From a virus, in the IMG/VR virus record IMGVR_UViG_3300021197_001350, positions 10,398 through 74,397 of that record: 64,000 nt of DNA; one strand, 5' to 3'. Positions 9,376 through 39,285 of the stretch are shown piece by piece. Position 1 is the stretch's first letter, and each line of letters opens with the position of its first letter. The position numbers and the translations under genes are program-made. The notes below the pieces were generated by a model that was given only the letters and a program-made list of their open reading frames with translations, was not told the origin of the DNA and searched no databases.

Positions 9376-10895
9376 TAGGGTGTTTGTTGAGATGCCTGTT
9401 GGGCTGCCGCTGCTGCTTCTTTATCTAGAATCGTCTGCACTTGCGGTCTAAGTGTGCCATCAGGGTCTCGTTGTGCAAGCATATTTTCTATATAGCTATT
9501 AAGGCTTGCGTAAGCACCTTTCGTACTTGCCTCCATAGCCTCCACATCATCGACAGTGCTAACATCCAGGAAGTTTCTAATGTTCATTCCTGTTCCATCT
9601 TTAGTAGGTGCAACAGCCTGCCAGAAGCTATCATACATACTGTCGCCTTGAGCATCATCCATTCTATCGACAAGTCCTGACATTGCACCTGCTTGCGACT
9701 CATTAAGCCTCTGCCTCAGCTCAAGCAAGTATCTCACTGCCTGCCCATCATCTGCTATGTTATCCGTTTGATCTAAAGCCATTTGAAATTCATTAGATCC
9801 ATCACCTTCATCAGGAGAAAAAGGATTACCAAATCCGACTGCACTATGCATATCTTCTATTCCAGAAAAAGCGTCACCTCCTACTTGGGTATCCTCGACA
9901 CCGCTTTCATATCTTGCAAGGGGAGCTATACCTGGCTTTAAGGAGGCAGGTATCCCCATTGCAGCATCCAAGGCATTCTTTTGTTGACCAGGTGTCGCAG
10001 GTGTAGGTGCATACATTTGCGGACGAGGTTGGGTTATCCCAGAGTAAGATGAGTAATCTATACCACCACCCTGAACACCTTTAAGTATTTGTGCTTCCCT
10101 TCCCTGTAGCTGCCTGAGTGTTCCATTGATTGAAAGTATTTGATTCTGGATCCGAGGATCCTGCAATGCCGACTGCTTCGTCTGGTTTACAAAATTTCTA
10201 TAATCGGTTATGTATTTCTCCGCCAAGTCAGTCGGTGCAGTATTCTTAAGCCAATTCATAAATGAACTAGTGCTTGCAGTAACACTACCCCGCTGCCCGC
10301 CTGGCATAGTAATATTCATACCGCTTGCGCTAAGCCTTGCAAGGAAAGCTTCATTCATCGATATGGTTCTCTCGCCAGCCTCCTTATCAAAGCCTTGACC
10401 TGGAGCCAAGGGTGTCTCAATAAGTAAACTGTTCTGTATATCAGCCAACTGCATACCTTTGGCTCGAATCTTTTCTCTAAGCTCTGGCAACTCACCTGCC
10501 ATTAATTCAGACTGACCTTGAAGGTATTCACGCTGAGCGTCCAAGTCTTCTTGAGCATAATTTCTTTGCTCCTCAAGATCTTCTTTCTTGTATGCTCTTT
10601 CCGCCTCAAGATCTTCTTTCTTGTATGCTCTTTGCGTCTCAAGATCTTCCAACTGGAATCCTCTTCGCATTTTAAGATCTTTCCTTGCTGCCCTACGCCT
10701 TGCCTCAAGTTCCATCGCAAGACGCTCGGTAGAAGCTTCGTTTCTCATACCCTGCTCAAACTGAAAATCTTCTCTACCCTGCTGCCTTTTTAACTCAGCC
10801 TGACCTTCGTTGTATCTCCTTTGCTCCTCAATCTGCTGCATAAGGAAAGGATCCATAGGCTTATTTATTAAAGGTCTTACATAATTAGCTGCCAT
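9375..10895 (-). CDS. Probable internal virion (ejection) protein, coiled-coil
   Basis: 506 aa, Q/E/R-rich helical N-terminus with 11-aa repeats; lies just upstream of the giant protein; GGAGG SD upstream. Confidence 0.6.
   Translation of the reverse strand: MAANYVRPLINKPMDPFLMQQIEEQRRYNEGQAELKRQQGREDFQFEQGMRNEASTERLAMELEARRRAARKDLKMRRGFQLEDLETQRAYKKEDLEAERAYKKEDLEEQRNYAQEDLDAQREYLQGQSELMAGELPELREKIRAKGMQLADIQNSLLIETPLAPGQGFDKEAGERTISMNEAFLARLSASGMNITMPGGQRGSVTASTSSFMNWLKNTAPTDLAEKYITDYRNFVNQTKQSALQDPRIQNQILSINGTLRQLQGREAQILKGVQGGGIDYSSYSGITQPRPQMYAPTPATPGQQKNALDAAMGIPASLKPGIAPLARYESGVEDTQVGGDAFSGIEDMHSAVGFGNPFSPDEGDGSNEFQMALDQTDNIADDGQAVRYLLELRQRLNESQAGAMSGLVDRMDDAQGDSMYDSFWQAVAPTKDGTGMNIRNFLDVSTVDDVEAMEASTKGAYASLNSYIENMLAQRDPDGTLRPQVQTILDKEAAAAAQQASQQTP
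10545..10655 (-). repeat. 33-bp coding tandem repeat (EDLExxRAYKK, about 4 degenerate units)
   Basis: ctcaagatcttctttcttgtatgctcttt occurs twice at 33-nt period; protein reads EDLETQRAYKK EDLEAERAYKK EDLEEQRNYAQ EDLDAQREY. Confidence 0.85.
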
Positions 10896-36954: not shown

Positions 36955-37148
36955 AGATTGAATGGGCTGATATATTTATCGTACTATTCTGCACCGCATT
37001 GATGGTACTTGTCATGTCCTTCATATTCGGTTGCTCTTCAACTTGTAGGAAAAAGGTCTGTTGCCCCGAACAGGGGCATGGGCCTTGTCCTATATGCACT
37101 AATATAATATACGACTCAGGAGATATAATCTATGGACGAAAGAGGTAA
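36951..37148 (+). CDS. Small Cys-rich putative lipoprotein
   Basis: GTGA overlap; hydrophobic signal ending in IFG-C, then CRKKVCC...CPIC. Confidence 0.5.
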   Translation: MKIEWADIFIVLFCTALMVLVMSFIFGCSSTCRKKVCCPEQGHGPCPICTNIIYDSGDIIYGRKR

Positions 37149-38202
37149 CGCACCTTCAGCTTCAGGTATAGGCAGGCTACAGCTATGCCCTGGCAGTTGG
37201 AATCTAGAAAAACAGTTTCCTGAGGTTGAATCAGCAGAGGCTACCGAGGGTACGATTAGGCATGAACTTATTGCTGATGAAGAACTAAAGGTTGATAGCC
37301 TTGAGCCTGAGCGTAGGTTTGTTGTTTCTAAAGCAAGGAGCCTTACGGAAAAAGCGCGCAAAGAAGTTGGCTTTACTGAATCCTCAAAGATACATAAGGA
37401 GGAAAGGTATTGGTTACTGAATGAAGCAGGGGCTAGGGTACTGAGTGGTAAGTTCGATTATGCTGAGTATGAAGGCAAGACTGGTCTGATTATAGATTAC
37501 AAGACATTAGGCGGTTACCAAATAAATGCATATGACAACCTACAGCTTAGAGCCTATGCAGTCCTGTTTGCTGAGAAGCATGACCTTGATTGTGTTTATG
37601 TTTCACTAGTGCAACCACTGGGTATTGAAGCTTACTCGATAGATATGCTTAATAAGCAGGATCTAAGAAAAGCACGGGTAAATATACTTGATATACTAAA
37701 GGATGCCCTGCATCCCAATGCACCAAGAAGACCGCACCCTAATGCCTGTAAGTATTGCAAAGCATTGGTACACTGCCCTGAAGTCAGGAATGTTATGGAC
37801 ACCATAATAGAAATCGACTTAGACAAGCTTGAGGAACCCTATGAGATTGAAAGGTTAATAGGCGTTGCTCAGATAGCATCCAAGTGGTCAGACAGGTTGA
37901 CTAAGTGGGTCAAGGAAAGACTCAAGGAGGATGATGAGTATCTCCCTAACTATAAGCTAAGGAAGACAGGCTCAGTTAAATCCATAAAGGATATGCCTAA
38001 AGCGATAAAGATCATTATGGATAAGCTAGGTATAAAAGATAAAGACCTTAGTAAGTACCTTAAGATAACCCTGTCCGATATTACAAAGCTATACGAGGAG
38101 AAGACAGGAGATAAGAAGGGATCACGCAAGGCGGTAGAGGAGATGCTATCAGAAGTTATTGTTGCCAAAGAGAAGTCTCCCTCTTTACAAAAGTCTAAGT
38201 GA
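37132..38202 (+). CDS. Cas4-like/DUF2800 PD-(D/E)XK exonuclease
   Basis: SAS...CPGS, EGTIRH, GKFD...IIDYKT, QLRAYA, CKYC...CP. Confidence 0.85.
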   Translation: MDERGNAPSASGIGRLQLCPGSWNLEKQFPEVESAEATEGTIRHELIADEELKVDSLEPERRFVVSKARSLTEKARKEVGFTESSKIHKEERYWLLNEAGARVLSGKFDYAEYEGKTGLIIDYKTLGGYQINAYDNLQLRAYAVLFAEKHDLDCVYVSLVQPLGIEAYSIDMLNKQDLRKARVNILDILKDALHPNAPRRPHPNACKYCKALVHCPEVRNVMDTIIEIDLDKLEEPYEIERLIGVAQIASKWSDRLTKWVKERLKEDDEYLPNYKLRKTGSVKSIKDMPKAIKIIMDKLGIKDKDLSKYLKITLSDITKLYEEKTGDKKGSRKAVEEMLSEVIVAKEKSPSLQKSK

Positions 38203-38555
38203 ATGACAAAGAGGAAGGAACCAAACCATCTGCTAGACAAAGGTCAAGTGCTTACCCTAACGCTAAAGGACTACAGAGTCCCAAGCCTCAACGTAGTGTT
38301 AGGGTCAAACCGATGGGCAAGGGTGAAGGCGAAGAAGGAATGCGGGCTGAGTATTCTATCTGCATTGAAAGCACTAGAGTCAACCTACTCGACCCAGACA
38401 ACTACTACATTAAAGATCTCATCGATCAACTCCGCTACGCTCGCATTATCCCTGAAGATGATCCGCAAACAGTCGAAATCGAAATCATCCCCAAAAAGGT
38501 CGCGGGCTACAAACAAGAAGAAACGAAAGTAAAAATAAAAAGAAATGGGAACTAA
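38199..38555 (+). CDS. RusA-like resolvase, catalytic half
   Basis: LDPDN..IK.LID.L...IIPEDD catalytic Asp motifs; lacks the N-terminal PSxN motif; alternative start ATG 38340. Confidence 0.75.
   Translation: MNDKEEGTKPSARQRSSAYPNAKGLQSPKPQRSVRVKPMGKGEGEEGMRAEYSICIESTRVNLLDPDNYYIKDLIDQLRYARIIPEDDPQTVEIEIIPKKVAGYKQEETKVKIKRNGN
38203..38532 (+). CDS. Overlapping frame carrying the RusA N-terminal half
   Basis: LTLTLKDYRVPSLN...NRWARVKAKKE matches the RusA beta1-PSxN-alpha1 pattern; ATG directly after upstream TGA. Confidence 0.55.
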   Translation: MTKRKEPNHLLDKGQVLTLTLKDYRVPSLNVVLGSNRWARVKAKKECGLSILSALKALESTYSTQTTTTLKISSINSATLALSLKMIRKQSKSKSSPKRSRATNKKKRK

Positions 38556-39285
38556 AGGAAAAAGACCAGCAATGTTATTCTATCCCCGTGATTGGTTAGT
38601 AGATCCAAATCTAAACTCATGCAGTCTATGCGCGCAAGGGTTATGGGTTAGGATGCTATGCTATATGTGGGAGTCCGAAAAAAGAGGCTACCTAATGGTA
38701 GGAAATAAAGCACTTCATGCAGAACAAATAGTAAGGTTAGTAGGTGCAGGCAACCCTGAAAATGAAGTACTTTATTGGCTGTCAGAACTAAAAGATGCAG
38801 GGGTTTATTCAGTCACCGATGAAGGGGTTATTTATTCCCGTAGGATGGTTGATGATGAAGGAGATACGAAAACATCTAAAGCTAAGAATAAAGTAAAGTC
38901 TTCCTCGCGTACGCGCACGCGGGCGGAAGATGAAGATGAATATGTAAATAAAAAGTTTAAGACTAAGAGGGCTGTTGAAGATGCCCTTCAGTCAGAGAGG
39001 ATTTCCTATGATCACTATCCAAGCTTTAAAATTTTTTGGGATATCTATCCTCCAAGGAATGGAGTGAGGCAGAACAAGAAAGAGGCTTTTGTCACATGGG
39101 TATTCCAAGCGTTGGAAGATAAAGGAAATTTAATTATTGACTCAGTTAAGAAATTAAAAGATACAGAGAGTTGGATTAAGGAGAATGGCAGATTTGTCCC
39201 AATGGCTACAACCTTTCTAAATGGAAACAGATGGGAAGATGAAGTCGAAGAGTTTGCCCCCTCCGCGTGGGGAATGAATGCGTAA
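38545..39285 (+). CDS. Replication initiator
   Basis: PAMLFYPRDWL (YdaU/DUF1376-like) N-terminus; FWDIYPPR...KKEA...ATTFLNGNRWEDE C-terminus; precedes DnaB. Confidence 0.8.
   Translation: MGTKGKRPAMLFYPRDWLVDPNLNSCSLCAQGLWVRMLCYMWESEKRGYLMVGNKALHAEQIVRLVGAGNPENEVLYWLSELKDAGVYSVTDEGVIYSRRMVDDEGDTKTSKAKNKVKSSSRTRTRAEDEDEYVNKKFKTKRAVEDALQSERISYDHYPSFKIFWDIYPPRNGVRQNKKEAFVTWVFQALEDKGNLIIDSVKKLKDTESWIKENGRFVPMATTFLNGNRWEDEVEEFAPSAWGMNA

Follow-up and report, generated by a model that had tools for sequence, protein, structure and literature searches.

Here we describe a viral locus in which the two halves of a RusA-like Holliday junction resolvase domain are encoded by two almost completely overlapping open reading frames (ORFs). 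The locus lies in a stretch of 64,000 nucleotides (nt) of the virus record IMGVR_UViG_3300021197_001350 from IMG/VR, a viral contig of 74 kb (positions 10,398 to 74,397 of that record; hereafter, the window). The layout is conserved among relatives, both frames are under amino-acid selection, and the two products are predicted to dock onto each other. As the most economical reading, we propose that the locus probably holds two separately initiated, near-fully overlapping ORFs, with the two products coming together as a single RusA-like protomer. A first-pass annotation, made from the letters of the window alone, had proposed the split and had offered either a two-chain enzyme or a -1 recoding event as its explanation. 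The evidence presented below favours the two-chain option, on account of the double selection, the openness of both frames, the lack of a slip site or structure, and the predicted docking. The main features of the locus are as follows.

38203-38532, plus strand: ORF A, 109 amino acids (aa); residues about 14-58 are the RusA-like N-terminal half (beta1, PSLN, alpha1)
38199-38555, plus strand: ORF B, 118 aa, in the -1 frame relative to ORF A
38281-38292, plus strand: PSLN motif, ORF A residues 27-30, invariant in 20 loci
38349-38376, plus strand: doubly selected stretch, encoding ORF A residues 50-58 (SILSALKAL, end of alpha1) and ORF B residues 51-59 (EYSICIEST, beta2)
38391-38402, plus strand: DPDN motif, with Asp65, Asp67 and Asn68 of ORF B, equivalent of the DLDN catalytic motif of Escherichia coli RusA
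38412-38414, plus strand: Lys72 of ORF B, after DPDN, invariant; putative counterpart of RusA Lys76
38454-38462, plus strand: Glu86-Asp87-Asp88 of ORF B, second acidic motif; putative counterpart of RusA Asp90/Asp91
38530-38532, plus strand: stop codon TAA of ORF A, arising at the first GTA-AAA codon pair of ORF B, 7 codons before the stop of B

The sequence of ORF A includes LTLTLKDYRVPSLNVVLGSNRWARVKAKKECGLSILSALKA, followed by a tail rich in Ser/Thr/Lys/Arg. This tail of about 50 aa, which includes SSINSATLALSLK, is the +1-frame reading (hereafter, shadow) of the C-terminal half of ORF B. The sequence of ORF B includes EYSICIESTRVNLLDPDNYYIKDLIDQLRYARIIPEDD as well as a stretch rich in Gly/Glu/Lys/Pro followed by MRAEYSICIESTRVNLLDPDNYYIKDLIDQLRYARIIPEDDPQTVEIEII. 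Residues 48-118 of ORF B make up the RusA-like C-terminal half (beta2, DPDN, alpha2, EDD, beta3, beta4), and residues 1-47 are a linker predicted to be disordered. This linker is not unrelated noise: it is the -1 shadow of the beta1-PSLN-alpha1 half of ORF A.

Conservation of the split layout

We identified 148 related split loci in IMG/VR and metagenomes, corresponding to 124 unique sequences with identities of about 30-96%. The loci examined comprised 12 close relatives, the DNA of 15 distant members, and 125 loci from two further scans. In the 12 close relatives, found on other contigs of IMG/VR and metagenomes (69-96% identity in frame A), the same two frames were present in a gap-free alignment. 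A profile of frame B searched against 1.84 billion cluster representatives (50% identity) retrieved 1294 proteins at E<=1e-3. In the 15 distant members (about 30-35% identity in frame B), the +1 frame was open in every case and read ..VPSLNALFGMNHWxRxKEKxxxQxAFxSAL... Homologs therefore keep both frames with the same split, 12 of them close and more than 130 distant, and no close homolog is continuous. The PSLN frame, on which the proposed split had depended, is conserved family-wide.

The frame relation between the two halves is fixed as well. The PSxN motif, including its variants PSWN and TSLN, is located exactly 110 nt ahead of the Asp codon of DxDN in 120 loci, and 122 nt ahead of it in 28 loci, where four extra codons leave the second motif still in the -1 frame. 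One locus (L062) displayed the further variant ISWN, in the +1 frame. Both motifs occur in a single frame, 165 nt apart, in five loci. Meanwhile, all of the approximately 50 frame-B family proteins inspected carry P[EKQ]P[EKQ]R.VR.EPLG in their N-terminal part, which is the -1 reading of PSLN....NHW[AG] (e.g., CCN AGC CTN AAC becomes xCC NAG CCT NAA C). The N-terminal half of ORF A is conserved in 20 loci, with PSLN, K33, and L44 invariant. Among the 148 frame-B sequences, D67, K72, D76, and D87 do not vary, and conservation reaches 90% or more at D65 and N68.

The cluster label of the family in the Atlas is 'hypothetical protein, Viruses 100%'. No relatives were found in GTDB representative genomes by pattern scans, which are limited to the patterns used. 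A tblastn search against 50,697 GenBank phages gave no match; thus, there is no cultured example among them. When the neighbourhood of the locus was compared with phages by blastn, the Sak gene was matched and nothing else. The soil metagenome contigs L017-L022, pulled in by the pattern LLDPDNYY, were discarded as they are not relatives and encode an unrelated 254-aa protein, the hydrophobic N-terminal segment of which resembles a signal peptide.

Amino-acid selection in both frames

For 12 representatives of different clades, we kept the protein of one frame fixed, resampled synonymous codons from the codon usage of the locus itself, and compared the conservation of the other frame with that expected of a shadow. 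With B fixed, columns A29-A47 of frame A were conserved far above the shadow (p<=0.003 for A37, 39, 40, 42, 43, 44, and 45). With A fixed, columns B-14, -13, -11, -9, -7, -5, and -2 onward of frame B were conserved (p<=0.005). The stretch 38349-38376 is under amino-acid selection in both frames, in each beyond the shadow of the other. In the first-pass annotation, about 38340-38380 had been put forward as the region read as the last part of alpha1 in one frame and as beta2 in the second, which these tests bear out and narrow down. As both elements share bases 38349-38376, the product of a single frameshift cannot hold the end of alpha1 together with beta2. Outside this stretch, selection acts chiefly on a single frame and its counterpart is mostly shadow, although the linker of B and the tail of A show weaker signals.

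The pattern of substitutions in the clade of the window agrees with this partition. Upstream of about 38340, variation is found at third codon positions of frame A, with DYRVPSLNVVLGSNRWAKVKAKKECG the same in every member. Substitutions silent in A that alter residues of B persist to about 38367. From 38370 onward, Ser AGC/TCG and Arg AGR/CGC switches keep B. Furthermore, every one of the 20 loci shown uses TTR for Leu55 of ORF A (column A44), phages of 53-65% GC included, because a Leu in A and an Ile/Val codon ([AG]TT) in B together require it.

Both ORFs are also kept open across relatives beyond chance. All 124 unique loci have frame B open across PSxN, and in 122 of them it is open across beta1 too. 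The probability of this openness by chance ranges from 0.009 to 0.54 per locus and, multiplied over about 10 clades, amounts to approximately 4e-8 by our own calculation. Frame A stops 40-59 codons past DxDN in 113 of the 124 unique loci, and within the last 10 or so codons of the domain of B in 102. With B fixed and synonymous codons resampled, the probability that A stays open for the 53-54 further codons is about 0.001-0.015 in the clade of the window, in line with the initial observation that both frames remain open there, and 0.03-0.39 for each of the distant loci. A stops earlier in L034 and L137.

As a separate observation, columns of the frame A tail (window 38448-38530) that are mostly Ser, Arg, and Lys (e.g., A77-A84 and A89) are conserved above the frame B shadow, and frame B avoids ATA and GTA codons until the stop of frame A has been passed. 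This suggests selection on the composition of the tail or against stops.

Relationship to RusA and predicted docking of the two halves

Neither frame of the window matched anything in Pfam at E<=10, and the unsplit relative L023 had no Pfam match. The hidden Markov model PF05866, put forward earlier as a check on each frame, thus detects neither of them; it matched one of 30 family members (E=0.067), below its curated threshold. Meanwhile, the RusA-like profile phrog_34 of PHROG matched 27 of 30 family members (best 8e-8) and phrog_1682 matched 21 of 30 (best 1.7e-8). Frame B of the window matched phrog_34 weakly (E=0.0087), and the unsplit L023 matched it over residues 1-118 (5.8e-8). Frame A products alone had no match in PHROG. 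Sequence searches of the PDB with profiles of the halves returned nothing for the C-terminal half and spurious repeat matches only for the N-terminal half. The RusA identity rests on the PHROG profiles, the motifs, and a weak fold match, not on PF05866.

The fold match comes from AlphaFold2 models. The model of frame B (148 sequences) lacks secondary structure in residues 1-50, with a predicted local distance difference test score (pLDDT) of about 50, and displays a strand-helix-strand-strand arrangement in residues 51-118 (pLDDT 84-89), with beta1 and alpha1 missing. Residues 49-117 of this C-terminal half align colinearly with residues 52-118 of E. coli RusA, the fold of which is a four-stranded sheet with two helices (1q8r_A; Z 4.4, root-mean-square deviation 3.4 A over 65 residues, 22% identity). 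This structure ranks 5th for the model and is tied within Z 1 with folds of the 4-oxalocrotonate tautomerase/macrophage migration inhibitory factor type and other beta-alpha-beta folds, and Foldseek gave no match in the PDB at E<=0.001. The model of the unsplit relative (4 sequences) was of insufficient quality for such a comparison (pLDDT 57). Catalytic acidic residues (DxD and DD) and a Lys are present in frame B in the same order as in E. coli RusA. We take DPDN, Lys72, and Asp87 of ORF B to be the equivalents of D70/D72, K76, and D91 of RusA, with which the colinear fold alignment agrees.

The two halves combined are alike to E. coli RusA (PDB 1Q8R; PF05866; phrog_34 and phrog_1682) in the order of their elements (beta1-PSxN, alpha1, beta2, DxDN...K, alpha2, DD, beta3, beta4), in their total of about 120 residues, and in the location of the gene in a phage recombination module. 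They differ in that RusA is one polypeptide encoded in one frame, whereas here the halves lie in overlapping frames with a doubly coded junction. Hence, the product is not a standard member of RusA, as it lacks the single-chain feature. Based on these similarities, the product of the locus descends from a RusA-like resolvase and presumably works like one, with resolvase activity as its putative function.

Modelling the two chains together, another check proposed at the outset, predicted that they dock. The complex of the N-terminal half (frame A, 48 residues, alignment of 20 rows) and the C-terminal half (frame B, 69 residues) reached a score of 0.80, compared to 0.01 for the best control; the mark used for this score is reached by 58 of 80 solved complexes and by 2 of 110 mismatched pairs. 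Runs agreed in at least 98% of contacts, with pLDDT of 86-87 for the partner and 86-90 for the two chains. In this model, beta1 and beta4 are paired, and the interface takes in residues 47-55 of ORF A and, with them, the doubly coded end of alpha1. The score indicates compatibility of the halves rather than binding, since halves of a known fold can pass through their likeness to solved RusA.

Unsplit relatives

Some relatives carry both halves in one frame:

L023 (P0161), P0162-P0164, and L080-L083: unsplit relatives

The C-terminal half of these proteins is up to 56% identical to that of split members, and both the PSLN..HW and LLDPDN motifs are present. In hhalign comparisons, the split C-terminal half matched L023 with E=1.8e-14, and the alignment of the ORF A N-terminal half (A5, 20 loci) matched the unsplit group with E=1.3e-4 over 38 columns. 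They differ from the split loci in that a single frame encodes the end of alpha1, a loop, and beta2 separately, with the motifs 165 nt apart and the remaining frames full of stops. The distance between PSxN and DxDN is thus 55 nt longer than in the 110-nt split type. In a 64-residue FastTree tree of both forms, the unsplit ones fall in two spots with weak support; for this reason, we claim no direction of evolution between split and unsplit forms.

Within L023, positions 2451-2465 (FDHDI, in the loop after alpha1) resemble positions 2526-2540 (LDPDN), located 75 nt downstream in the same frame, with 13 of 15 identical. This likeness may be a trace of internal duplication or a matter of chance. 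An origin of L023 by a recent 55-nt tandem duplication was rejected, as this imperfect 15-nt repeat, with its 75-nt distance, was the sole repeat found.

Start codons of the two ORFs

In the window, the two ORFs begin side by side at the end of the upstream nuclease gene:

38199-38205, plus strand: twin starts GTGAATG; the GTG of B overlaps the TGA of the nuclease gene (38200-38202) and the ATG of A follows directly
38340-38342, plus strand: internal ATG, Met48 of frame B, inside the invariant AAGAAGGAATGCGG (38332-38345)

The placement of both starts at the upstream stop, with GTGA for B (38199) and with the ATG at 38203 directly after TGA for A, had been described in the first-pass annotation and was verified here. 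The junction AAGTGAATG recurs in the distant 122-nt-type loci L102, L129, and L147, and such junctions are thus shared by unrelated subfamilies. The first start of A is ATG in 104 of 123 loci and lies 0-3 codons from the upstream in-frame stop in 83 of 123, compared to 17.5% expected. The first start of B is ATG in 67 of 123 loci. Among the 122 loci scored for the offset between the two starts, B begins 4-16 nt upstream of A in 46 (4 nt in 14 loci, 7 in 10, 10 in 6, 13 in 12, and 16 in 4).

Many B ORFs, belonging to several subfamilies, start 20-40 codons ahead of A and open with a conserved N-terminal peptide module, of which there are at least three types (ELxRRFPNASxSTIxRN, WTxxDLxxYExR, and KKGFxxxxxGxWYK):

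L031:2390-2477, L027:2483-2516, and L032:2411-2459: N-terminal modules of B, in proteins P0030, P0032, P0034, P0038, P0041, and P0135

None of these modules occurs in the clade of the window itself. Since they are conserved and lie upstream of the start of A, they argue for separate initiation of B.

The internal ATG at 38340 was considered as the B start of the family and rejected. This codon is ATG in 13 of 13 DNAs of the clade, reads Val (presumably GTG) in P0007 and P0008, and is absent in distant members. Its conservation is not independent evidence of a start, because the Glu-Cys of frame A (GAR TGY) forces RTG at this position. Meanwhile, at L026:2278-2292, the ATG of A is followed by ten A's and then by the ATG of B (ATGAAAAAAAAAATG), behind the Shine-Dalgarno-like (SD-like) GAGGGGGG. 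Given its length, this homopolymer could allow transcriptional or translational slippage between the frames in that one lineage.

Proposed mechanism and alternative explanations

Under the reading that we consider probable, ORF A would make beta1-PSLN-alpha1 and a basic tail, and ORF B would make a disordered linker followed by beta2-DPDN-alpha2-EDD-beta3-beta4, with all the catalytic residues. Ribosomes finishing the nuclease gene would probably restart in either frame at GTGAATG, given that both ORFs of the window start at the junction with the nuclease stop. The two chains would then assemble, with beta1 of A pairing with beta4 of B and alpha1 of A packing on beta2 and alpha2 of B. The rebuilt RusA-like protomer would presumably dimerise on junction DNA, as RusA does.

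Several points weigh against this reading. The starts of B are less gene-like than those of A, with just a modest enrichment beside the upstream stop. No SD-like motif precedes either start in the window, although many genes of the window have AGGAGG with a spacer of 7-9 nt; as neither start has this motif, restart after termination of the nuclease gene is a step that we infer for the window. Translation of both ORFs, coupled restart, assembly in cells, and resolvase activity are likewise inferred from sequences and models. The complex score may reflect the memory that the model holds of solved single-chain RusA, and it was obtained with alignments that we supplied. The tail of about 50 residues on A is kept open without an explanation, and L034 and L137 do with an earlier stop. 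Finally, the advantage of the layout is left unexplained by a saving of only about 55 nt relative to the unsplit relatives.

The main competitor is programmed -1 recoding, which we regard as unlikely while still giving it appreciable weight. Ribosomes would start in A and slip to B before beta2, e.g., at GCG AAG AAG GAA (38329-38340), yielding a fused beta1-(short alpha1)-beta2... protein beside the unshifted product of A. This would fit the constant frame relation, with B exactly in frame -1 relative to A at every one of the 148 split loci and a fixed offset of 110 or 122 nt, as well as the weakly defined starts of B. In the clade of the window, AAGAAGGAATGCGG is invariant, even at three wobble positions of frame A. 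There, GGGCTGAGTA (38344-38353) could also form a 9-bp stem with TACTCGACCC (38386-38395), with 9 of 10 pairs, starting at a typical spacing of 6 nt past the invariant AAG AAG. Besides, an A_AAG, A_AAA, or T_TTY tetramer occurs within A20-A52, in the Lys-rich alpha1, in 76 of 101 loci of the 110-nt type, and the KEK codons of distant members contain the SD-like AAGGAG. However, no canonical X XXY YYZ heptamer is found in frame A of the window, as had been noted in the first-pass annotation, and the heptamers of 8 of the 124 unique loci are scattered over five codon positions. The stem is invariant in the clade, shows no covariation, and is not significant (z -0.54); at the same positions 1-5 of 10 pairs form in distant loci, and a conserved frameshift-stimulating stem was rejected because the pairing is not kept there. 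No RNA structure conserved family-wide was found, nor any stimulatory RNA structure or SD-like element at a fixed spacing. The fused product would have to give up one of two selected segments, the end of alpha1 or beta2, and would retain 34 residues between PSLN and DPDN compared to 51 in the unsplit relatives. No continuous product across the frames explains the conserved coding, given that A (to A47) and B (from B-14) share 28 nt. Recoding gives no account of why B is open over beta1-alpha1 in 124 of 124 loci, why A reaches the end of B, or why N-terminal modules of B are conserved upstream of A.

The remaining explanations appear far less probable. It is very improbable that ORF B alone matters, as a self-sufficient shortened nuclease or DNA-binding protein, with PSLN-alpha1 of A as the decaying relic of an ancestral N-terminal half after a frameshifting deletion, or conversely that A alone matters. 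Gene callers do give frame B as a normal protein of about 118 aa in hundreds of clusters, and all catalytic residues are in B. A relic would nonetheless have decayed and gained stops, whereas the N-terminal half of A is under strong amino-acid selection at about 30% family divergence, with PSLN, K33, and L44 invariant and variation at wobble positions; moreover, in the prediction for B alone, two fold elements are missing and the first 50 residues are disordered. Even less credible is a single full-length chain, made by ribosomes that read A through alpha1, move back some 30-55 nt, and re-read in B, or by another double use of the overlap. The unsplit relatives are longer by exactly 55 nt (165 against 110), the amount that would be read twice, and both readings of the overlap are selected. 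We know of no backward repositioning of ribosomes by about 30-55 nt, conserved take-off or landing sequences or structures were not seen, and the open B linker and open A tail would be left without a role. Last, one missing base would produce the same picture in a single contig, by an assembly or sequencing error or in a recently broken pseudogene. This is the least probable explanation of all and is refuted by the homologs: an indel is excluded by the same frame relation, the fixed spacing, and the selection in both frames in 124 unique sequences from independent metagenomes.

Comparison with known systems and implications

Programmed -1 frameshifting, as in the G/GT tail assembly chaperone, dnaX, and IS3-family transposases, resembles the RusA-like locus in placing the downstream part of the protein in frame -1 relative to the upstream part and in its family-wide conservation. 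Those systems feature a slippery heptamer and, as a rule, a stimulatory element; their overlap is short and their fusion product continuous. The RusA-like locus, in contrast, has no conserved slip site, a near-complete overlap, and a junction selected twice. Overprinted phage genes (A/B/K/E of phiX174 and the lysis gene of MS2) also use two frames of the same DNA, both of which are selected. There, the second frame is a new and unrelated protein, whereas here the frames encode homologous halves of one ancestral domain that are predicted to co-fold. In the two-polypeptide phage endolysins (CTP1L and relatives), a single gene region gives rise to two chains that assemble into a working enzyme (PMC4777826, PMC9430671). 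Their second chain is initiated in frame at an internal codon and duplicates a portion of the first, unlike the complementary chains from different frames proposed here. The literature that we searched contained no description of this family, of a RusA frameshift, or of a split overlapping enzyme. The 'RusA/RuvC' mention in the PRFect paper rests solely on the 1991 paper that identified ruvC.

We lean towards the view that this is a large, purely viral family with an undescribed architecture, in which a small single-domain enzyme is made as two chains from a near-complete overlap of two frames. As part of that architecture, and with the same cautious preference, we propose that some 28 nt serve twice, as the last part of a helix in one frame and as a beta strand in the second. 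As for the shadow segments, i.e., the basic tail on A and the flexible linker on B, they would be kept translatable and may have been put to use.

If both frames are translated, the locus would be a natural overlay of the two halves of one fold, stable over deep divergence in more than 120 phage lineages, and it would bear on the origin of overlapping genes, which here would have come from an existing gene that split instead of from a newly invented one. It would also bear on the extent to which a single sequence can meet two sets of structural constraints simultaneously. If -1 recoding takes place instead, it would be a widespread frameshift without canonical signals, which would be new as well. 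These findings have implications for annotation, since the first 50 residues of the 118-aa 'hypothetical protein' called by current pipelines are an out-of-frame shadow; gene finders see frame B only, so that the protein sets searched here lack the N-terminal half of the enzyme for this family. With about 360 nt that are easy to express, the locus is a small test system.

Gene context

The RusA-like locus sits in a recombination and replication module. Around it lie the genes of a single-strand annealing protein (Sak), a PD-(D/E)XK nuclease, a 246-aa protein, and a DnaB helicase. The nuclease (DUF2800) is encoded immediately upstream, at 37132-38202, with its TGA stop at 38200-38202. The ATG of the next gene (38545) is in the phase of ORF A, four codons past the A stop. 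Frame A continues without stops into the downstream ORF (...ELIEAYWxxCxxSWNRxAFDVF...) in L032 and L037 (to 2930), and frame B does so in L024 (to 542) and L027 (to 2992). Which of the two halves shares its phase with the downstream gene therefore varies from phage to phage.

In the window, the 246-aa protein (38545-39285) is encoded between the resolvase locus and DnaB. It has no Pfam match and is well conserved and syntenic within the clade of the window (L003-L006). From its position, it may be a replication organiser or a helicase loader.

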